A DNA stretch of 63,877 bases, the filler included, from Licmophora abbreviata (Eukaryota): the NCBI GenBank assembly GCA_900291995.1. It is 13 parts of 13 records of this genome, joined end to end, with 100 filler letters (N's around TTAATTAATTAA, not from the genome) between each part and the next. Parts side by side here need not be neighbours in the genome. Positions count along the whole stretch, not along the records: positions 6,440 to 19,501 come from OLMU01004897.1; 12 more parts are not named here. The stretch is one strand, 5' to 3'. Below are positions 6,320 to 19,601 of this stretch, piece by piece. The translations under genes and the position numbers were made by a program. Positions within the stretch are counted from its first letter, which is position 1. Each line of letters opens with the position of its first letter. Below the pieces are notes generated by a model that was given only the letters and a program-made list of their open reading frames with translations, ran no database searches and was not told the origin of the DNA.

Positions 6320-6672
6320 AGCAATAAGAGCACAGCCATNNNNNNNNNNNNNNNNNNNNNNNNNNNNNNNNNNNNNNNNNNNNTTAATTAATTAANNNNN
6401 NNNNNNNNNNNNNNNNNNNNNNNNNNNNNNNNNNNNNNNACGTAAGTGATGAATTGTTCCAGTGTTTTCCCGCCAAAATATTGTTTGAAACGTTGGATGG
6501 CTGTCGTCGCTCGTTGGACGATCGGATCGACGGATGACGCACTGATGTGTTGACATTCCCAGAAAATGTCATCCGCGCGTCTGCGGCGTACGTTTGCCCA
6601 TGGGATTCCATTCTCGGACCGCTGTTTGCCATCTTTCCTGGTCTCGGGTGTCATTTCAAAACTGTATGGAAC

Positions 6673-8301
6673 ATGCACTGTCGTACTTTACTACTCAGAA
6701 GAGGCAGGTCATCAGTAGACCGCTCGTCCCTGTCAGAAGCGGTATCTCTGGCACGACGGTATCTCACGTCCGCACCTCCTGCCGGAGAGCGCATGCGGAT
6801 CGCCATCGTCGGTGGAGGTGCCGCAGGTCTTTCGTCGGCTCTGCACTTAGCTCCCCTGGTACAAGAGGGTCTCATCGCTTCTCCGATTGATATTTACGAA
6901 GCTTCCTCGAAGGGAGGACGAGAAGTCGGCATTGGTCTCTGGAGTACGGCGTTGGACCCTCTGCGGACGGCGGTGCGGAGTTCGCATCAGCTGCTCTGGG
7001 AAGATTTGAATCGATATGGACGATGGGTAGGTGCGGTAGGGTATAGGACACCCAAGGGTACCTGGCTGGCAAAGAGTCGTCTTCCGACGCTGCTAGGCGA
7101 AGAAGAGGAATTGGACATGCCAGCACTTTTGTTTTTGCGAGAAATGGACTTTCTAACCGCGCTTCAGCGAGCGGCGCATTTGGAAGAGCTGCAGGGAGCA
7201 GTCAAAATTCACCGTGGGAGCATGGGGTCGAATGTAACGGGGCTTTGGGAAGAGTCACCTCGGCCGTATTCTGCTCCGCTCTTGCTGTCCAATGGAGATG
7301 CGACCGAACGGGACTATCATTTGATTGTCGCTGCCGATGGAATGCATTCGACTCTACGACAGCAGTATGGAGGTCATCGGCGACTGCAGAGATTAACAGG
7401 CACCAATGCTCTGTTTGATACGGATTCCGCAAGCTCGGCGGTTCGGTCATGGGATGCTTCCGAGTGGCAAAAGCAGGCGAATACAATTGAGGATCGCAAG
7501 TATACGGTATTCCGAGGAAACGCACCATTGACTGAGGAAGAGACTGGCGTGGATGGAGTCAGCTTTCAAACATGGGGTGTTGGTAGGAGCATGAGGTTTG
7601 CGACGGTTCCCTTGGCGTATCCATTGGGCGAATCCAAGCGGACTGAAAAGCAAGTTTGGTTTGCTACGACCTCAGACGAATCCATTGCAGCAGAAAAGGA
7701 TCCTGCCAAACGTCACAGTATGCTTTGCTCGGCCTTTTCTAGCTGGCACGACCCGATTCCAAGATTAATGCAAGCCACCCCTCCCGATGAAATTCTGTTT
7801 GATCGAGCCATGGCTCACCGACACAGTGTGCCCCCGGCCCTAAATATCAATCAAGTGTTGAAGCAGACAAAAAAACGACAACCGACTGCAAGTGGTCCTG
7901 GGCCTGCCATGGTCTTTGTCGGAGACGCGTTCATGACTGTAGATCCTATTTTAGCTCAGGGTATCACTATGGCAATGGAAGGCGCATCTCAACTAGCACG
8001 CTCGGTCGAGCAGGCATGTCAATCGGGCACGGAAGAACAATCGCTCGCGTTTGACCCGGACGTACTTCGAGAAGGACTCATAAGTCGTTACGACCTTCGG
8101 TATGACCGCTTACTCTGTTTGCTACGTGCGACGGAGCTTGTGCAGGCGCTCGGTCAGCCGCAGGGCGGTATCCTTGGGTCTCTCAGCCAGCGCGTTCTTC
8201 GGCCGCTTATGCGCATTTCTCCCGATTTCGTCAAGCGCCCGATATTCAATTCAATGCTCAAATACTCGTTGGGAGTTCCGATTCGGAACGCGAAAAAATA
8301 A
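6673..8301 (+). CDS. FAD-dependent monooxygenase (salicylate hydroxylase/zeaxanthin epoxidase-like fold), probable mitochondrial presequence
   Basis: IAIVGGGAAG Rossmann motif, LIVAADGMHS (DG motif) and VFVGDAFMTVDPILAQGITMAMEGA (GD motif). N-terminus is Arg/Ser-rich. Confidence 0.85.
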   Translation: MHCRTLLLRRGRSSVDRSSLSEAVSLARRYLTSAPPAGERMRIAIVGGGAAGLSSALHLAPLVQEGLIASPIDIYEASSKGGREVGIGLWSTALDPLRTAVRSSHQLLWEDLNRYGRWVGAVGYRTPKGTWLAKSRLPTLLGEEEELDMPALLFLREMDFLTALQRAAHLEELQGAVKIHRGSMGSNVTGLWEESPRPYSAPLLLSNGDATERDYHLIVAADGMHSTLRQQYGGHRRLQRLTGTNALFDTDSASSAVRSWDASEWQKQANTIEDRKYTVFRGNAPLTEEETGVDGVSFQTWGVGRSMRFATVPLAYPLGESKRTEKQVWFATTSDESIAAEKDPAKRHSMLCSAFSSWHDPIPRLMQATPPDEILFDRAMAHRHSVPPALNINQVLKQTKKRQPTASGPGPAMVFVGDAFMTVDPILAQGITMAMEGASQLARSVEQACQSGTEEQSLAFDPDVLREGLISRYDLRYDRLLCLLRATELVQALGQPQGGILGSLSQRVLRPLMRISPDFVKRPIFNSMLKYSLGVPIRNAKK

Positions 8302-8350
8302 ACGCCCTTGATGACGGCGCACTACCTTGTACTCTGTCACAGTTAATCTT

Positions 8351-10634
8351 TTAACCCATAGCTGGGATCACTACCTCGATTGTTTGCGCGAGCCCCGTGT
8401 CGGAACAGCAGAGCGCCCGGTACTTTTCGTAGTCTGCTGTGTGTCTTCCCATTTGAGCGAGCGCCAGTGGTGCGCACCAGACGGAGACTAGGAGATCCTC
8501 GCATCCTTCGCACTGTGTCGCTGGGATGTTGTACGCCTTGCGCGTGTGCTTGCGGGCACGCATGACCAACAGGAGAAAGATGAATACAAGGGGCGCTTGG
8601 ATCACTACAAGCAAAGCAAGTGCCGCGATTGCAATCGGTGGGTAGGGCGTACTGATAATGTAAAACAGCAAGAAAACGTTCAGTCCCACCAAAGCTATCG
8701 TGGACAGTACAACCGTCTTGACTCTAGTTCTCGAATTGAGAGTTGACGCCTTCTCGTTCGCTGCTGAAAGTCTCAGCCTTGCCATAATCTGAGTCAGTGC
8801 AACTATCATACAAAATAGAGTGGAGTTGGGGTGGTGAGCAAAAACCTGCCGAACGACGACATGTGCAGCGTGTCTCCATACCTTGGGGGCAACAGAAGCT
8901 AGTAAGCAGCATTGGATGGCATATACCATGTGCGAAACAGCTGAATAGGCCGTCCTTCCAACGGCCATGGGGAGTATTCATTTCCAAGTAATCTTTCGCT
9001 TTTACGTCATGCATCACCGAGTTGAAAACCTCGCCTTTTACGACACCGTCCTTTGGCTGACGATAAAAGAAGACAATTCACGTTAGAAGTGATGGACGGA
9101 TGTGAATGATCACATGCAAGCCAACTGCTCTCACCACCGTGGCTAGAAACACCTCCTTTCCAACTTGCGCTTCAAACTGATAGCCACCCGGCAGATTCTC
9201 GGGTGCAGCAACTTGCACAACCCGCACCCCAACGCGTCCGCCACCCGGACTAACACTCGGAAGCACAGTACCCTGCGGAAGCTCGTATTGATTAGTTTGT
9301 CCTGGTGTCTGAACAAGCACCCCGTCCCCCTTTTCAGTATTTGCACTCGCAGTGCCCCGAACACTCGAGTATCCCATTGCTGTGTCATTTATATTCCCCA
9401 AGTCCCCTGTACCTGACAACCGCGTTGTGTTTCTTTGTCCCCTAGACTGCGGCAGAATCTCGAGCATGTCGACGATGGAAGAATTCTGGTTGAGAACTCT
9501 ATCTTCCTCTTTCGTTTCGGTCACCACTTGATTATCTTTCGTAGGCGAAACAAATTGGGTCGCTTGGTCGTATCGCGCCTCTCCTTTTACCCGAAGAATC
9601 GAAGCAGGCTCCGGCGAATCATAGTGTCGTGGCGATCGCTTCTGCAAGCCTTTTCGTCCCTGAGAACTTTTCTGATTCTGCGATTGATGTAGCCGACGCA
9701 AGTCCATATCTTCTTTCGCGACCCCAACAGAATGCGTATATGATTCACCGCGGTGGCCGCCGTACTGCATGGGAGCCGTGCCGTCCAGTTGTCCATAGCC
9801 ATTTGATGGATGACTCTCAACCATTCCACCCCAATTCTGATATTGGTCTCTTGCGTCGCTCGGAAAATTGGCTCTCCTGTATTCTTGAGTTGGAGGAGCA
9901 TAAGTCGTTGGCCGGGGAGCGTGTCCGCCTCCTCCCTGCGCTGGATCTGAATAATTGTAATGTGAAAGAGTTGACTCGCGTCTTCGTGGGGAAATTGCCG
10001 GCCTATAATCTGGTGCTCGCAACGCTGGAGGACGAGCACTATGAGAATATCGCGGCATCGTTGCAGCGGAACTTTCTTGTCGGATCGGCTCTGGATGCTG
10101 GACACGTTGGTTCAACGACGCTGATGCACTGGGATCGGGGAACGTCGGCTCGTTGAGTTGGACGACTTGGTGCAGCGGTATCCCGGACCATCCTTGTCGC
10201 CCAGTAGGAATTTCATCTCGCCCTGATACAGGATCGAGACTCATAATGGTGGACCCAAACACCGTATTGAGTTGGCGCATCAGGACATCCTGCGGACCTT
10301 CCCCTGGTACAGGGAAGGTGGACAGAGTTTCGCGACGATACTGAAAGGCGTCGACAAGGTCGTGTCTATCCTTCCCGTTCAGCACTGTGAAGAGAGCTTG
10401 GTTAGGGCTCATCGGTCCATTCCTGTGAGCTCCCAATGCTCGCTGAGCAGTCGCACAGAAAGCGGCGTCGTTCTCTCTCAAGGGATTTGTTGGAGTCCGC
10501 TGCTGCGGAGAACGCTTGACTCCTGGTGACCGGGTTGGATAAACCGCTCTATCTTCGTCTGCGCGCCATCTTCGATCCCTTTGATTCACCAACGGCTCTT
10601 GCATGCTTCTTTGGTTAGTGCTGTGGTGCTCCAT
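8351..10634 (-). CDS. PLAC8-domain membrane protein, paralogue A (introns 9057-9134, 8803-8881; start uncertain)
   Basis: Spliced C-terminus: VAAPENLPGGYQFEAQVGKEVFLATV|PKDGVVKGEVF...GRWKDGLFSCF...CCPQ|VALTQ...RARKHTRKAYNIP...CEDLLVSVWCAPLALAQMGRHT. The W..GLFSC, CP, R..Y.I and QxxRH motifs are PLAC8-type. Confidence 0.8.
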
Positions 10635-10936
10635 TCTCCTACGTGCCTGTGGCAGTGGAGCTCTGATACCCACAATTGCACCACCGGCGACAACGGATTG
10701 CCATCCCCATTCTTGAGGAGAGGAAAAGGGACGCCGCCCAGATTTGAATACCATCTGTATATGTTTTACTTTGAGTACGAATACATTCAATATTGTTCAA
10801 CTTCAGTACGATAGCGTCCGTAGCTATCAGCAACGTAATTTCATACAAAGAATTAGTACGATTGGGCATTTTGGCGATAGGGCCTAATCGCAATTGCCGT
10901 CATTTTTTACACTGCAACGCATTCAATCATCATCCC

Positions 10937-13114
10937 ATGGTCACACACGCAAGAAACGACGGCCCCACCATGACTCGAGGATGGAAGACTCCAAGAGGAG
11001 GAGGCTCAGAACAAGATGCCGAGTTTGACGAGGCTTTCAGCTACGAGAACATTGCCCAGTCCAAGTCTCCGGCCGCGGATCGATATGGGCGAACACAGAC
11101 ATACACTTCGTATCGTCCTTCACGAGATGACCCTGGAGATCGGGAATATCGACAGGATATTACACCCATTTCACCAGTCGCACCGCAATCAGCTTCAGAA
11201 AGCATGATCGGAGATGACATTGCATTCTTCAGAATCGCCTCTGACCTCATGGACCTGCACACGTTAAAGAACAAAACTGCGCAACAAGCACTCGACTCGA
11301 TTCTAACGACCCGACAGCAACAAGCATTTCACGATAGACTGAGCACTCATATGTCTAATCTACCAATGTTTCCAGAGTCAGGAGAGAGCCGTGACATGCA
11401 GACAGTTCGAAGCGTTTGGGGTGTGTTCGGAAAGGCATTGAGTGATCTTGAGACACGGTTTGATGCTACTTCCAACGGCCGGCGATCGATGACTGGGGTT
11501 CCTCTGGAAGCGTCACGGCGGACAATGCAATCCACACCGGATCATAGTACGCCAGAAGACCCTAACACGGACGAACCATATGCATACGAGGGCGCTTTTC
11601 AACGTGACGACACAAGGATAGTTACACATGCTCATCCAGACCCCCCATACTATTCCGCGACGGCCGCTGTGTTGGACATGGAGGACTCCCTCAGTCCTCG
11701 GCCTATAGGGCCACATCGGCCTCTGCGAGTAAACGTCGATTGGAATATGGTACTTACTGAGGAGAATATCCTTGCGAAAGATAAACGAATGGGTAATTTG
11801 TTTGTCCCGACACAGTTGGAAGTTGCCGTGTCGATGGATCCAGACGTCCCAGGGCATGATTCGATTGCCCTTGGGTCTGCTGCCGTGACGCCGTCACCCA
11901 TGCGAACAATGGTTGATCCTGTGGAGGACCAGCCGATCGTTACTCGCTCAACAATAGATGCGGTCCCTAGGTCCGACGGTACAGACACGGTCTTCAGGTC
12001 AGGTGATGTAACTGCGTTGACGGATCTCGAATCACGGGGATTGAAAGAAACAACACGTCACCAGCGAAGAGAACTCTATACTACGGAGACAGCGCGAAAT
12101 AGGAAAGTTGAGGTTCTGGCACCGGAATCGCTTCCAGCGGTAAGTTGAAACTGATTGTCTACCGGTAAACATGAATGGCCATTGTCACACATAAAATTTC
12201 TCTAAAACTATTGGATATCTCACAGGGTTTCCAATTCGAAGCAAAAGTGGACGATAAAGTATTCTTAGCTACGGTGGTAAGAACCGTCTTGTGCACCGCA
12301 CTGCCATCGTGTTCGTCTTTTGCTCACAAACGTTTGAACTTCACTCCATTCTGCGCAGCCACAGGGTGGGGTCGAGAAGGGACAAGTATTCGTCTCCAAA
12401 ATGAAAGATGTCTATGGTGAAGAAAACTCGCGAAGTCGAGAGTTCCTGAACATGAATGTTCCTAAGTTCAGGTGGCGAACGTCATCGTGCGATTGCTTTC
12501 ATCATGGCTTCGGACATCCGTTCGTTTGGACAGCGCTGTTCTGTCCGCATGGTACGTGGAGAATAGCCTATTCGCCGGTGTTCGCGCGTCACGGATGCTA
12601 ATGTGCTGTGTATTCTGTCGTTGCTTTCTTAGTTGCACTCTCTCAGATCATGGCTCGTCTGAGGCTTTCTGGAACTGGTGAAAACAACGTTTCTCTTCGG
12701 TCGCGCACAAGGTTGAGCAGCATCAATTGTCTTTCTTTCGCTGTCGTTTTCTTGCACGCTTTTTATGGCTTGTACTTTTTGATTGTCAGTCCAACCATGC
12801 TTTCGGTTGGGATTGCTACATTGGCTTTGGTGGCACTCGATGTCTTTCTTCTCCTTTACTTTTTCTGCATGGTTCGGAGAACGCGTCACGTCATTCGGCG
12901 GGAATATGCCATCAAAGACATCATTTTCGGAGATGCGTGCATGGCGATTTGTTGTACATGCTGCACTTTGACACAGATGGGATATCATACGGCCGACTTC
13001 GACACTTATAGAGCGCATTGCTGCACAGACACTGGTCTCGCCCGTCATGTCGAGGTGAAGCTACCATTGGACGATGTGAATCGACGTCGTGTCGCGTCCG
13101 GAGTCGCTGTGTAG
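10937..13114 (+). CDS. PLAC8-domain membrane protein, paralogue B (introns 12140-12225, 12277-12358, 12552-12632)
   Basis: Spliced: VLAPESLPA|GFQFEAKVDDKVFLATV|PQGGVEKGQVF...RWRTSSCDCF...FCPH|VALSQ...RRTRHVIRREYAI...DACMAICCTCCTLTQMGYHT. Confidence 0.8.
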
Positions 13115-13536
13115 GTGCTAGCGACTGGCAAGTCTTCGATCAGATAAAGTGGTGAATTATCTGTTTACTCTAGCTTCGTTCTGTAGGGATTCTGATGACT
13201 TTGCTAGCTAGAGATCCTGCATACCGGTAGTCAGAAGTTGACGGCGCGAACAGCGTTTCTAATTGTACTTGCCTTCAGTACGTCTGTGTAGATCGTCGAG
13301 GCAACGGGAAAATATCATGATAGGCCCAACGCACGATCGCAGATTGGCGAGCCTGCCGTGGTCACTTTTTGTTCCACGTGGTGTGCTGTGTCGAATGCAT
13401 GAACTGCGAACGAAAAACGTGTCTCTTGTCGTGTCCCATAGCTTATGATATGTATACAGTCCAAGGCAGAGAAGATGGAGACCATGCATATAGACAAAAG
13501 AAGTTATCAACGATCCCAGAGCTGGGACTTGCTGAC

Positions 13537-14908
13537 ATGGCTAATAATCGGGTGACACTGACAATGTCACGTCCCATGAGTCCCAATGGTGCCCTACCCA
13601 TTATCCCTCCACACGACGTTACCAGAGGGGAAGTGCACAGTTCTAATAAGCAGGGATCTGAGTCTGTCACGCCAGGACCTAGCTCCCCTGCTGCCGTGTC
13701 AAAGAAGGTGACATTCGGCTCGCCCATCTCAAACGATGTCCATATCATGCGCCACGATATGAGGTCTGACGATGAAGAGTTTGCCATCGCAGCTCAACAA
13801 ATACTAAGGAGAATACAAGCCGACGAACAAAGAGACGAAACCAACCTACTCGCTGAAATTTTGCAGGATGGTGTAGATGTTATCTGGAGCTTTGGTAGCA
13901 GCGAGTCGATCATGGATCATGATGAAGAGGCCATACCTGTGATGACAGCACAATTTCTGGCCGATTTTGATATTGCATTGAAATATCGTATGAAACGATT
14001 GCCCTTTCGGACCAGCGGGAAGGAGACCGACGTGGAACAACTCACGCGAACAGTCACGTTCGCTTTGGCAAGTTGTGGCTACCCCCGCCCGGAGGACCAC
14101 CTAGCTTACAGAAAAGAATGTCCAGACGAACCAAGAGTAGACCCTGAAGCTCAATATTCAGTTTCGCTTCCTGGAAAGGCTGATGTCGGGCTTCTAGGTC
14201 GCTTGCGACAATGTTTTTTCCCAGACAACGAATCTTCTGGAGTGGGCGGTATCCCAGTAGAGGCTCCAGGACGAAGTTCTTCTTCGGTGCCGAAGGTTGA
14301 TCGATCGTTTGAAAAAGAGACAGTTATAGTTCGGGACTCTAATTTTAAGCCAATGGATAAATGGCAAGTCAACGTCCTTTCAGAATCAGCCCCGCTGTGT
14401 GGGGACGACGCAGTGGATTCCCATGCAAGCCCCGCGAACAGTCTGGGGAAAGGGCGAGAACAACGCACCGGGGCACGAAATTCCAGAAAAGAATTGAAGG
14501 ATGAAGAACTGGGCAGCGATAATGTCGATCGGGCATTCCGAAGACAGTATTGTTGTAATTCGGGAGTCTCGACTGATTGATTTATCGGCTTTACAAGCCT
14601 CTGCGAAGCAGGATAGCGAGGAACAGTCCGTCAACCTCCGACAAGTCTCGAATGAAGTCGCTGTACTACGTGAGCTGTCGATAGAGCGGCAGAGCCTTGT
14701 AGAAGAAAGTCGAAGAGTTCAAGGTATGGTTCGATCGACTCGAAATGAAAGTGTACGGATATCGTGCCGACGTCGTCTAGAGCAACTACGACTAAAGTTG
14801 CGAGAATTGTCAGGTTCTGACCCGTTGTCCATCCGACGCAGTCGAGGACGACAGAGCGGCGTCGATAACGGGAGACAGCAGGATGCCCCTCGTCGTCTGT
14901 CCCTCTAG
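13537..14908 (+). CDS. Paralogue D of the cluster: N-terminal helical domain plus C-terminal helical hairpin, no PLAC8 domain; frameshift at about 14539
   Basis: DDEEFAIAAQQIL...FDIALKYRMKRLP...LTR resembles the neighbours' N-domain. ORF 14501-14908 continues it: DRAF-EDSIVVIRES repeats the earlier DRSFEKETVIVRDS. Confidence 0.6.
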
Positions 14909-15022
14909 GAGATACGTTCGCTAAATAGCAAGTCTAATGATTCACAGGTTGTCAGAAATCAAACGGAACATGTATCTCTTATCTTAATAAACGTGTTCAA
15001 GTTTCTTCTGAAGTGGGGTCAA

Positions 15023-17182
15023 CTACACAATTTCCTGGGCCTCGCGACAATTGGTATTATAGATATCAGCTCCGGGAACAAGTCCCGTCATGGACCAACA
15101 TTCAGCCTCGTATTGGGCGTAATTCACCGTATGACGTTCCATCTGACAGACCGAGCAGGGCAAACAGAAAGCGGCACAGTAAAAATCTTCCAAATCGAAG
15201 CATCGCTTCTCTGGAATGTGGTGCTTGGTACGAAGCGCGGCACGAGTTGTTGACACGACGTTGATTGCAAACGCGAGAAACGCTCCATTGACCAGAACGA
15301 TCGCCAGCCAGTCTGCAACAGACAGTTCCAAGCCACTGTACCATTTGTAATTGTAGGCTGCGAACACCACCACATTCAGCGACAACCACACGAGGATGAT
15401 CTTCCACATCGTCGTGTAGGCCTTCTTAGAACCCTTCCTGGAGGGTCGTCCCATGAAGTCGAGACCGGTACGAGTCATAACTTGACCAAGTGCAACTGGC
15501 GAGAGCGAAATACGGCGACATATACTACATGAGATCGCATCATAAAAGGCAGCGGGAGTCACGAACAGAAACTTACGCAGAGGACACCACAGCCCGTTCA
15601 AGAGGTGGGCATGGAACATTCCGTGAGCGCCACAGTCAAAAAGGCTATCACGCCAGTCACCCCTGGGGACACCCTCTCGCGAGTTGACATCTCTCATGTC
15701 ACTCTTGAACGTTTCTCCCTTGTACACTCCGCCAACAGGCTGTGACAGACGAAAAGATAAAAGCGGTGAGAATCATACAACCAGTGAGACAAACTATATA
15801 CATCCACAGAATAATGACTCACCACAGTCGCAAGGAAACGCTTTCCCTCAATCTCCGCCTCGAAAACAAAACCCGTTGGCAAGTCTGCAGGGGCGACGAC
15901 ATCCACCAGTTCCGTTGAAGTGGCGCCGTCAGCGGCCACGGTGACCGTATCCATCGAGCGACTCGGTTCAGGATAAATTGCTCCTCGCGATGGAGGTATA
16001 TATTGTCCCGACGTCTGCAGATGCTGGTTATCCGTGGTAGAAGGTTAGCCTCGGGCTCATCATCGCGTAGACGAAGATGCGCCTGTAAGACTTCATCATA
16101 ATGATGGGAACTTGAAACCGATACCGCCGACGACGGGGTCTCAATGTGCAAGGCACGCAAACGGGCTTGGAGCTTGACGACGTGCTCCTTCCAGAACTCA
16201 GCAGCGTCTGATGTCTTGGATTCGGCCATGAATTTGGTGGCATCGCGAAGTTCCGCCATGAGCTGCTGCCTAGCCAAGTTCTCGGTGGCCGACGCGTGCG
16301 CTTCCGTAACGGACGTCCCCGTCAACACGGAACCGACAATGCTGCCGTCGTCGTGAGGGGAAATGTGCTGCGGAGGCAGGTTGGCAGCAGTCAGCGGTAC
16401 GCTTGAGACCATATTGGTAGCTCCCGACGGGGGCTTCGTGTTGGTCGGAGCGTTCTGTGTCAGGAGAAAGCACGATGCAAGTTAGTTTTGAGTTCTGTAG
16501 CAGCAGCGACATACAAATGGGATGACACAAGTACCCGTACCGTAAAGTGAATGGCTGAATCGTCCGTCGTCGCAAAACCAGCCGGCAGAGCCACTCCTGC
16601 CATTGCATAGAGAGGATTCGTACCATCCTCCCTGTCCAATCCCAAGTCCTTACAGCGACGCGTCAAGACATGAATCTGCGTTCCAGACTCAGACGGACAG
16701 TTGTGTTGGATTCGATAACGCACTGCCTCAACAAAGTCCTCCCTGGCCGAGGGTGGCAGCATGCTGTTGAGGTCATTCGAAGCGGCCGGATCAGTGAAAT
16801 ACGAAACGACCAAGTCGGCCAAAACATGGAAGGTATTGTCATTGTGCCTCAAGTCCAAGTTACGACTCTGGGTGGCGACAGACTGAGTCGGCGAGGGTGG
16901 CACCTTGGGTTCTTCTTGTGGCACGCCCGAGGGTTCCTCAACACTTTCCTGCGGAGGCACTGACGAGGGGCCGGCCTCGCTTTCGAGCTTGGGCACCGCA
17001 GCAGGCTTGGCGTCTTCTGTGACGGCCGTGAACTGTGAGTCGCCTGTCGGGGCGGACGTGTCGCTGCCGAGCTTTGGCGACGCCGGTGGCGGACTCGAAA
17101 CACGAGAGCGCTTCGTCGGACTAGCAGTCCGAGTGGAAGACGCAGACAACAGAGACGGTTCTTCCTTGTCGTTCCAGAACAT
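15023..17182 (-). CDS. PLAC8-domain membrane protein, paralogue C (introns 16455-16540, 15740-15822, 15496-15576; frameshift at about 16043)
   Basis: Spliced: VVAPADLPTGFVFEAEIEGKRFLATV|PVGGVYKGETF...GDWRDSLFDCG...WCPL|LALGQ...TRAALRTKHHIPE...EDFYCAAFCLPCSVCQMERHT. Confidence 0.8.
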
Positions 17183-17788
17183 GATGGCGAGAACTGCGTG
17201 GCCTATCTATGGCGCTTCTCCGTCACACAGATCTGAACTTGCCTCCGTCAGAACAAGTTGAAAGTACAGTGAGTCTGTAGGTGGCTCGAACCGCGCCACT
17301 TCTACCTCCAACACAGAATCCTCTGGCGATTTCTACTCAAGTCTTTCTAGGAGATGCACGCTTTCTCCGTTCGAGTACACTAGAAACAAGTGTCTTTGTT
17401 AGTACCGATGAAACGACAAAGGGTGCCGCGGCGTCGTGTCGATCGCTCTGTGTTCTGCTCCAAACCAGGTCGCTGATTTTCTTTTCATCAGTGGCGTCGC
17501 CAATCTTGTAGCCGGGTGGATCTGTCCGTTGGCGACATTAGTGTTCGCTGCACACGATTCAGTATACGGCACTGGTAGTAATACATACGCATCTGTCAAC
17601 TTTGAAAAGTGAACTGCGAGCTCTGAGCTCTCCAAACAAACAAACAATACTTCCCGCCAAGCCGCGGCATCTTGCGCGCCAAACTTCTGACATACGTCAA
17701 CCATGGGAGTGTATCCTTGACATTGCATCTGACTTAAGTACATCATCTCACTACAAGGAGCAGCCTTAAACCCACGCCTACTACAATC

Positions 17789-19328
17789 ATGTCAAAAGAG
17801 GGAGCTCCCCTCCCCGAGTCGGTCTCATGGCGTGTCTTTCTCGTGTTCTTTGGCATGTTCCAAATTACGCTCGCCGCCGGATTAATCGTCGGCTGGGCAG
17901 GTATCGCCGGGAGCATGCTAGTAGAATCGCTCGAAAACGGCGGTGCCGGTTTGACCCTCGATGAGACGACGCAGATGTTTGGTCTCGCTGCAAGTGTCAA
18001 CTACATTTCGCCGCTCTTCCTTGGTATCTTGTTGGACAAGCGAGGTCCTCGCACGTGTTCGGTCGTTTCCAATTCCTTTGTCGCAATCGGGTGCCTTGTC
18101 TTTTGCGCGGCACAGCAGCTTACGACGTTCTCCATTGGCATTTGTCTTGTCGCCTTTGGAGGACCTGGTGTACAAACGTCGCTGATTCATCTTGGAAACT
18201 TGTTTCCAGAACGACGCTTCTTTGTCATGGGATGTGTCGCAGAAACCATTACACTGTCCTTTGCCATATTGCCCTTGATGGATGTCCTGTGGCAAACCAC
18301 GTCGTTAGGATTTCGCGATTTATTCGGAGGACTCTCAGTCATGGTGGCTTGTTCGGCAGTGGCGTCCGTTTTACTCTGGCCCGATACAACCTACGAAGTA
18401 CAAGAAGTCCAGCATGAAGCTGTACAGGAGGAGGTACCGGTGACGCACAGCATTCGCTACCGAGATGCCAAGCAAGACTTGGAGGCGCTCTTACAGGACG
18501 AAGATATCGTGCCGCCCACCACGAGTCTACAGGACGCCACGTTTCAAGAGCAGGTGACCAGTGGAGTCTTTATCCGATTGAGTCTCTTCTTTCTGGTCAC
18601 CAGCTTCTGGGCGAACTTCTACATTGCAATTGTCACCACTGAGGTAAGAGGCAGCGAGTTTGACAGACAATCTGTATCATCGAAAAACGAATCTACTAAC
18701 TTACGTGCTTTCGGTGTAACGCGCACAGCTTGGAGACCAACAGCTTTTCGACTTGGACATGCAGCACCAACTTGCAGTCCTATTGAGCTTTATCGACGCC
18801 GGTGCCATTGTCTGTGCACCGCTTAGTGGCTATCTTCTAGACTCCGTCGGTTTCACCCCCACCGCCTTCATCACGATCTCCCTCGGCATCCTCCAGATGG
18901 TCCTTGTATTGAACGCCGGTGCAAGCGTTCCCCTGATGATGGCAAGCTTCGTGTCGTACTCCATCTTCCGTGCGTTCCTCTTTCCTTACTTTTTCGCCAG
19001 CCTCTCGAAAAAGATTGGCTTCAAGTTCTTTGGAATTCTATCCGGCATGTCGTTTTCTATCTCTGGCATTTCGCAGCTCTCCATTGCGCCCCTGGCGACG
19101 GTAATCGAAGGCACGTGTCATGAATTTGACGATATTACCGAAACCAACTGTGAAGTGGGCAAGTGGAACGAGATCCACGTGGTACAGATACTTTGCTTGT
19201 GTGCACTTTTGTTGGTACCCCTGATGGATTATTGTGTGACAAAGGCGGAGAAGGAGAAAGAGAAGGATGCCAGCATGAAGTTACTCCTGGACAAGTCGAG
19301 CCAGGGTTCGTATGGGTCGACGAACTAA
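17789..19328 (+). CDS. MFS transporter (SLC43/LAT3-like); intron 18644-18728
   Basis: About 12 hydrophobic segments and the MFS motif A variants GILLDKRGPR and GYLLDSVG. AGLIVGW and FGILSG are typical of SLC43. Confidence 0.8.
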
Positions 19329-19601
19329 CGAAGCTGACTGGCGTTGAGGCTTACTATATGTTGTTCAAAAGAGACGGTGATGTAGAGTACGTTGATACTT
19401 TAGGTTGTTTGTTTGCTCTTACGTATTTACGTTCGGAATGTACGTAGATCTCAAGAATTTACTTCGTAGTATTCGCGGTAGGTCATGCGGTACATCGGTA
19501 GNNNNNNNNNNNNNNNNNNNNNNNNNNNNNNNNNNNNNNNNNNNNTTAATTAATTAANNNNNNNNNNNNNNNNNNNNNNNNNNNNNNNNNNNNNNNNNNN
19601 N

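Follow-up and report, generated by a model that had tools for sequence, protein, structure and literature searches.

In plants, PLAC8 proteins affect tolerance to metals, the entry of Ca2+ and the number of cells by a mechanism that is unsettled, and those of the PCR/FWL type are small and essentially single-domain. Roles in Cd/Zn transport and in cell number control have been proposed for the plant proteins, and a motif of the first hydrophobic segment, CC(L)XXXXCPC, was tied to Cd resistance in plant PCR proteins (available part of PMC10380795). MCA1 and MCA2 of plants (mid1-complementing activity) are mechanosensitive channels permeable to Ca2+. MCA2 is a tetramer with a large cytoplasmic and a small membrane part; MCA proteins have a single transmembrane (TM) segment together with a region resembling an EF-hand at the N-terminal side, and their PLAC8 is considered cytoplasmic (available part of PMC3903776). 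MCA has been called land plant-specific in a source whose main text mentions neither diatoms nor stramenopiles (PMC8049495). In the oomycetes Phytophthora and Saprolegnia, PLAC8 genes are strongly expressed in zoospores or cysts, according to the available parts of two reports (PMC7409359, PMC3681718). Here we examine a stretch of 63,877 bases from the diatom Licmophora abbreviata (assembly GCA_900291995.1), called below the window, in which four genes, A, B, D and C, lie side by side. Our reading, to which we give a rough probability of 0.4, is that they are four neighbouring paralogues of an uncharacterised, diatom-wide, multi-domain PLAC8 family, whose products act together at one membrane complex. 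We found no paper on PLAC8 proteins in diatoms in the main texts searched (transcriptome tables of such papers may list members), and within this literature the claim of an earlier, sequence-only reading of the window, that the family had not been described in diatoms, is upheld.

Four paralogous genes in one contig

A, B and C share both their layout and two intron positions. In each, a disordered region leads to a beta-rich module, which is followed by a PLAC8 domain that includes two hydrophobic helices, as the sequence-only reading had described. In each, a phase-0 GT..AG intron lies directly after FLATV (78, 82 and 83 nt in A, B and C) and a phase-1 GT..AG intron follows CPQ (A), CPH (B) or CPL (C) plus one base (79, 81 and 81 nt). 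The splice junctions thus confirm the two common places proposed before. Gene B has in addition an 86-nt intron within the module, which had not been listed. Over module and PLAC8, identity is 45% between A and B, 34% between A and C and 36% between B and C.

Gene D contains no module, no PLAC8 and no TM segment, and its kinship is read from its N-domain and its hairpin. Scores of single sequences against a hidden Markov model (HMM) of the canonical N-domain are weak (A 8.5, B 3.7, D 12.8 bits). Comparison of N-domain profiles by hhalign matched the canonical type with the A/B clade (96.2%, E 2.6e-9, 80 columns), the A/B clade with the D-type (96.7%, E 4.6e-10, 78 columns) and the canonical type with the D-type (85.3%, E 5.9e-6, 78 columns). 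Moreover, the C-terminal hairpin of D aligns with the relative P0178 and with L017_g2, a gene of the metagenome locus L017 described below, with the common signature STR...V..CRxRLxxL. From these profile comparisons and the hairpin alignment we conclude that A, B, C and D are all paralogues, D looking nearer to the A/B branch. D would have kept the cytosolic N-domain and the hairpin and lost the module and the anchor, which would make it a soluble protein. Common ancestry despite strong divergence had been proposed for the cluster: the ancestry stands, on the hhalign matches, but strong divergence does not fit the module, which is the best-conserved part of the family (consensus VDVVAPADLPGGYxFEAEIxGxRFLATVPxGGVxxGETF).

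The window is made of 13 pieces, joined by spacers of N44, 12 bases and N44. All four genes lie inside one N-free piece, 6440-19501 (record OLMU01004897.1), and the arrangement A(-), B(+), D(+), C(-) within a gap-free contig is as first described. Public low-depth contigs, mostly from marine metagenomes, cover the stretch in part at 95-100% identity. The four runs aligned to it, three of marine metagenome DNA and one (X5) tentatively labelled RNA, showed no splice joints, and none of them spans the frame change in C. To build the gene models, splice junctions were read directly in the sequence and the exons then translated; no modelled exon of the four genes holds a stop codon, and introns in the A/B/C locus are about 80 nt long. 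The features are as follows.

8351..10754, minus strand: gene A, 748 aa (amino acids), exons 10754..9135, 9056..8882 and 8802..8351
10269..10484, minus strand: N-domain of A, residues about 91-162; weak HMM match (8.5 bits) and A/B-clade profile comparison
9012..9227, minus strand: beta module of A, cut by the phase-0 intron 9134..9057 after FLATV
8552..8725, minus strand: TM hairpin of A, the two hydrophobic helices in PLAC8, from the hydropathy scan; compare helices 491-518 and 525-556 in the AlphaFold2 (AF2) model of relative P0002
10755..10936, no strand: head-to-head spacer of 182 bp between the start codons of A and B
10937..13114, plus strand: gene B, 642 aa, exons 10937..12139, 12226..12276, 12359..12551 and 12633..13114
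12107..12403, plus strand: beta module of B, cut by the extra intron 12140..12225 and the FLATV intron 12277..12358
12722..12883, plus strand: TM hairpin of B, from the hydropathy scan
13450..14908, plus strand: gene D, 485 aa with base 14540 omitted; N-domain about 13753-14049, D-type hairpin about 14627-14821
15023..17182, minus strand: gene C, canonical member, exons 17182..16541, 16454..16125, 16023..15823, 15739..15577 and 15495..15023
16541..16894, minus strand: N-domain of C, residues 97-214; scores 164 bits with the family HMM, 47% identity to P0002 49-174
16140..16292, minus strand: helical hairpin of C, residues 269-319; 83 bits, 70% identity to P0002
16024..16124, minus strand: frame change in C, explained by a 101-nt GT..AG intron or by coding sequence that carries a 1-nt indel near 16024-16045
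15695..15909, minus strand: beta module of C, cut by the FLATV intron 15822..15740; 83% identity to relatives over 29 aa
15245..15415, minus strand: TM hairpin of C, from the hydropathy scan; Asn in both helices

Gene A, a member of the A/B clade, thus reads as N-domain, long disordered linker, module and PLAC8. Gene B is of the B-type, with a His in the first TM helix (TM1) and an Asp in the second (TM2), and gene C, under the intron model, encodes 602 aa. The PLAC8 assignment of the sequence-only reading was confirmed by HMM matches in all three proteins: Pfam PLAC8 (PF04749) scored 37.8 bits on the exon pieces of A and 39.5 on those of C, above the cut-off of 34.4, and 32.2 on the piece of B, from which the domain's first exon is missing. 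On the B-type relatives P0117, P0107 and L017_g3 the same model gave 48.8, 52.6 and 44.1 bits. With TIGR01571 (cut-off 35.05) the exon pieces reached 37.5 (C), 31.5 (A) and 29.6 (B), and P0002 46.6. A hydropathy scan placed two hydrophobic segments in each of A (625-682), B (513-566) and C (473-529) and none in D; in the first three proteins it detected no further segment beyond PLAC8. Pfam found no match on the N-terminal exons of A, B and C. In each protein, low-complexity or disordered sequence takes up about two thirds, residues of the set PQSTGENKRD making up 63-68%.

A family found across diatoms

The exhaustive phmmer search, queried with the 249-aa read-through of the last two exons of C, returned 735 matches at E<=1e-3, where a word-indexed search with C found nothing. 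Of these matches, 265 passed E<=1e-10 and 47 passed E<=1e-30. Many of the 735 family proteins are 400-2,837 aa long. Among the best 150 of the 735, the complete module stands directly before PLAC8 in 101 and is missing in 17, the remaining 32 being fragments that start inside PLAC8 and cannot be judged for the module; the N-domain is found in 38 of these 150 and the hairpin in 51. Nine relatives match C collinearly by tblastn in four blocks, N-domain, hairpin, module and PLAC8, with identities of about 39-49% in the N-domain and about 39-70% in the hairpin. These collinear matches mark C as a canonical member, and the family has these four conserved parts. The shared architecture seen in the sequence-only reading is real, but it is not peculiar to the cluster, being standard for a diatom-wide family.

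All named sources are diatoms, centric and pennate: Grammatophora oceanica, Epithemia clementina, Conticribra weissflogii, Seminavis robusta, Mayamaea pseudoterrestris, Fistulifera solaris (two proteins), Nitzschia inconspicua, Thalassiosira oceanica and T. exigua. Database labels of members are 'hypothetical', 'expressed unknown protein' or PLAC8/TIGR01571 protein. In the ESM Atlas, P0006 retrieved PLAC8 clusters only, commonest in Bacillariophyta, and a query of N-domain plus hairpin gave no usable match. Pfam and NCBIfam recognise only PLAC8/TIGR01571 in family proteins; the N-domain had been called novel, and like the hairpin and the module it is indeed without a Pfam model.

A quick IQ-TREE analysis of 117 module+PLAC8 rows, supported by the Shimodaira-Hasegawa-like approximate likelihood ratio test (SH-aLRT) only, places A and B in a clade of eight rows (SH-aLRT 91), B with L017_g3, P0117 and P0107 in a subclade (97) and C in a clade of 56 rows (98). 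In pairwise scores, B is nearer to P0117 (263 bits) than to A (191 bits). Judging from these clades and scores, the splits between A, B and C predate the divergence of the sampled organisms and the genes are not recent tandem copies; the age suspected for the family is borne out in that B resembles proteins of other organisms more than its own neighbour A.

The intron positions also extend beyond the window. Of the 55 fetched loci, 13 show the CPx intron, as a split at the matching residue, and one shows the FLATV intron; 13 database gene calls end at the CPx position. On these counts we take both sites to be features of the family, kept in some lineages only. It is unusual that the lineage of the window retains the FLATV intron in each of the three clades. 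Many of the fetched loci are uninterrupted, and some may be transcript-derived contigs.

Some individual members deserve mention. In two giants, P0033 (1,790 aa) and P0043 (2,837 aa, Epithemia clementina KAL7575943.1), there are IQ motifs for calmodulin binding, a long way upstream of the cassette of N-domain, hairpin, module and PLAC8, and P0035 (2,512 aa) has two copies of the N-domain. Pfam matches to Pyr_excise, a pyrimidine dimer glycosylase, recur on the hairpins of C, P0004, P0005, P0021, P0025 and P0033 with 17-23 bits against a cut-off of 23, P0021 alone passing it with 23.2. We read these mostly sub-threshold matches as probably a helical look-alike and not as a glycosylase, but their occurrence in the family is consistent.

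A recurring gene neighbourhood

Metagenome contigs scanned with the family alignment yielded 55 loci (L001-L055). L017, of 8,517 bp, is the only one with more than one module+PLAC8 gene (1/55 overall, 1/22 of those of at least 6 kb). It is free of introns, its proteins are about 35-45% identical to those of the window, and it holds four family genes:

L017_g1, plus strand: canonical type, 93% identical to P0054
L017_g2, L017:940-3324, minus strand: 795-aa D-type with N-domain, two D-type hairpins and module, no PLAC8
L017_g3, plus strand: B-type
L017_g4, minus strand: A/B clade

Read backwards, the window has the order C-D-B-A, which is the type order of L017: canonical, D-type, B-type and A/B-type. 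In both, the canonical gene and the D-type gene are tail-to-tail, with a gap of 114 bp in the window and 76 bp in L017. L017_g2 ends about 30 residues after the module, and it looks intermediate between the full-length members and the module-less D-type proteins of the window, P0178 and L031. In this last locus, the D-type HMM revealed a 654-aa open reading frame (ORF) at 218 bp, head-to-head, from a canonical gene; it comprises an N-domain-like part and two D hairpins, and neither module nor PLAC8. All three D-type genes with visible context therefore adjoin a canonical gene. A metagenome scan with D gave 133 pattern matches, none of which was confirmed.

Sizes of the longest contigs hint at further linkage. 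The clusters of P0005 (C clade) and P0078 (A/B clade) list the same four longest-contig sizes (16900, 11472, 4887 and 5104), and those of the B-type P0107 and the canonical P0225 both list a longest contig of 24689. To our knowledge, conserved neighbourhoods of functionally linked genes are uncommon in eukaryotes. The local retention that had been suggested for the cluster is borne out by the same four types in the same order in L017 and by the D-type/canonical pair of L031.

Beyond the four genes, tblastn with the nine relatives found no further family gene in the window at E<=1e-3. The A-B spacer is a candidate shared promoter. The cluster is flanked by an ORF at 6538-8301 (+), FAD-dependent oxidoreductase/monooxygenase-like (FAD, flavin adenine dinucleotide; FAD_binding_3, 28 bits), and by an ORF at 17738-18826 (+) for a transporter of the major facilitator superfamily (46 bits). 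Neither recurs in L017, which is wholly filled by its four family genes. Elsewhere, the window shows 12 pairs of N runs between 4558 and 61785, and gene order across these spacers is meaningless.

Structure and membrane topology

The AF2 model of P0002 (626 aa, 60-row alignment) has a mean predicted local distance difference test (pLDDT) score of 73.5. Four parts are confident, mostly above 90: a helical part at 80-175, a two-helix hairpin at 228-276, four strands at 382-424 and the segment 440-610, in which the long helices 491-518 and 525-556 are flanked by short Cys-rich helices. Outside these parts pLDDT is low. In the family, the 101 positions of the PLAC8 model stretch over about 150 residues, the two helices being longer.

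Lys and Arg abound in the sequence that flanks the two long helices but not in the short intervening loop. By the positive-inside rule, both termini and nearly the whole protein would be cytosolic, with a loop of roughly ten residues facing outward. This makes unlikely the 'recognition system' that had been among the suggested functions, since so small a part of the protein would be outside. Within the membrane, TM1 has an Asn in 77 and TM2 in 73 of the 109 rows outside the A/B clade; in that clade, TM2 has an Asp in 6/8 rows and TM1 a His in 3/8 by alignment column, B itself having a nearby His. An ion site, or a zipper of polar contacts between hairpins, would be in keeping with such TM residues.

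Folded alone, the N-domain has pLDDT above 90 for residues 61-175. A fold search with this model found no chain at Z>=5 among 48,161, and Foldseek none at E<=1e-3; the predicted fold is thus unmatched in these sets, which is not proof of a new fold. With the full-length model Foldseek returned no match at E<=1e-3, and the VIA-wide fold list held generic helical hairpins at Z<=7.8, the module and PLAC8 being barely probed by it. A sequence search of the PDB with P0006 found no related solved structure (best E 0.12).

Proposed function and alternatives

The full architecture runs from a disordered N-terminus through a helical N-domain of roughly 100 aa, the hairpin and a disordered linker to the 45-aa four-strand module and PLAC8. 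The two long helices of PLAC8 would form a membrane hairpin that anchors A, B and C, leaving its Cys/His-rich segments on the cytosolic side. C, the A/B-clade subunits and the soluble D could then assemble or regulate one another via their homologous cytosolic domains, while the mid-membrane Asn/Asn pair of canonical members and the His/Asp pair of the B-type would line or zip an oligomeric bundle of hairpins. Such a bundle might pass or sense divalent cations, in loose analogy to what has been proposed for the PCR and MCA proteins of plants. We favour a hetero-oligomeric, cation-handling complex because of the polar TM residues, the IQ motifs and the PLAC8 precedents (available parts of PMC10380795 and PMC3903776). 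For joint action of the products we see the odds as even; a function with cations is distinctly less probable than that. More specific, and to us rather improbable, is a lineage-specific heteromeric complex of at least three PLAC8 hairpin subunits (canonical, A-type and B-type) and a soluble paralogue without the anchor, all encoded by a neighbourhood of genes that distant diatoms have kept. It would act as a cation channel or sensor of a new kind, in which the intramembrane Asn/Asn and His/Asp residues form the pore or the sensing site and a domain without known fold exerts control from the cytosol.

Several points weigh against joint action in a cation-handling complex. Most canonical members are unclustered, 54 of the 55 loci having one PLAC8 gene, and the A and B genes of the window do not have the orientation of their counterparts in L017. 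L017_g1 falls outside C's own subclade in the tree, so that the two loci are parallel by type and not by strict orthology, and the linkage read from equal contig sizes is indirect. The family HMM detected no hairpin in A and B of the window, although their A/B-clade relatives do carry it. At the position of the CC(L)XXXXCPC motif we find ..FCCPQ in A, ..LFCPH in B and ..LWCPL in C (family consensus FCPLxALGQ), that is, a motif reduced to C-P (C-P-[LQH]). Finally, D and possibly C have problems of reading frame. Prediction of a complex between the hairpins of C and D, run without controls, gave no answer (score 0.00) and speaks neither for nor against binding.

The first two of these points would be expected if the four genes were relics of old tandem duplications, each protein acting by itself, perhaps as a homo-oligomer with a membrane or life stage of its own, with adjacency kept by chance or by a shared regulatory landscape and no physical complex. 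Old, diverged clades at 34-45% identity also agree with such independence. It is harder to reconcile with the same four types in the same order in L017, at only about 35-45% protein identity, with the D-type/canonical pair found again in L031, and with a canonical neighbour beside each D-type gene whose context is visible. We regard independent paralogues as possible, with the odds clearly against.

The proteins could instead be scaffolds anchored in the membrane, with no transport role. Long cytosolic arms made of the disordered regions, the N-domains and, in some members, IQ motifs would only be tethered by the hairpin and by the perhaps S-acylated, Cys-rich segments next to the membrane, and the proteins would give order to a diatom-specific structure at the cortex or on the surface of an organelle. 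Much of the composition is in keeping with this: the PQSTGENKRD-rich, low-pLDDT regions, a mass that would be nearly all cytosolic, the IQ motifs of P0033 and P0043, the loss of the PCR-type metal motif and the restriction of every named source to diatoms. But polar or ionisable residues conserved mid-helix in both TM segments would be unusual in a mere anchor, and Pfam detected no cytoskeletal or adaptor domain. A purely scaffolding role seems to us unlikely, somewhat more so than independent action.

The frame problems themselves bear on the last alternative. D is split into two frames at 14540 and becomes a single reading frame once one base is omitted. A contig of metagenome run X2 lacks that base exactly at 14540, and P0178 (35% identity to D) and L017_g2 are collinear across it. 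On this evidence D is read as one 485-aa gene with an assembly indel or a variant at 14540; the sequence-only reading was right to place a paralogue here on the plus strand, with the reservation that a single frame is obtained only with this base left out. In C, the frame shifts between 16125 and 16023. A 101-nt GT..AG intron fits, but the sequence read in the frame that precedes the shift is similar to a short helix found in P0002 and P0025, so that a 1-nt indel near 16024-16045 is at least as likely. The extra base at 14540 suggests indel errors or variants in the assembly, and the frame change of C may be of the same kind. That the cluster is decaying, with D and perhaps C as frameshifted pseudogenes, is very improbable in spite of the base to be removed from D and the frame change of C, given an independent metagenome contig without the extra base, matches of both halves of D to P0178 and L017_g2, modelled exons free of stops, a usable GT..AG option in C and conserved motifs that are all intact.

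Beyond the window, diatoms prove to have a greatly expanded set of PLAC8 proteins to which three conserved parts have been added; one of these is confidently modelled and yet has, in the predicted structure, no recognisable fold. Four paralogue types, one of them anchor-less, recur in a similar arrangement, from which follows a testable hypothesis of a heteromeric complex in ecologically dominant algae. The interest of the locus rests on these unmodelled domains and on the recurrent four-type neighbourhood; the Asn, Asp and His residues of the TM helices, the module and the N-domain are the targets of choice.

Comparison with known PLAC8 systems

The family shares with PCR, FW2.2 and CNR proteins the PLAC8/TIGR01571 HMM matches, hydrophobic membrane segments inside the domain and the Cys-rich segments that flank these helices. 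It differs in size and composition, the window proteins having 600-750 aa, relatives reaching 2,837 aa, and three extra conserved parts being present. A PCR/FWL type was rejected, as the Cd resistance motif is reduced and the proteins are multi-domain.

Oomycete PLAC8 genes also come from stramenopiles. In the available parts of the reports they are named only as PLAC8, their architecture being undescribed, and the likeness is one of description.

MCA1/MCA2 show some likeness in plan. On both sides the proteins are multi-domain, with a functional domain at the N-terminus and a C-terminal PLAC8 that, by description, follows a helical or coiled-coil element, and, as far as the available account of MCA goes, both would combine a big cytoplasmic part with a small membrane part. 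The element in question, the helical hairpin, is present in C, in D and in most relatives and undetected in A and B, and its comparison with the MCA coiled-coil is by description. In the same account, the TM segment of MCA is N-terminal, whereas the TM segments of the family lie only inside PLAC8; the N-domain, hairpin and module, moreover, are unrelated to anything that Pfam models. Membership in MCA was rejected on the lack of an N-terminal TM segment in A, B and C, Pfam coverage of the MCAfunc region being uncertain. The comparison with MCA drawn in the sequence-only reading accordingly survives as an analogy and not as membership. By domain content and HMM matches, the family belongs to the PLAC8 superfamily and stands beside the MCA and PCR/FWL types, being neither one nor the other.

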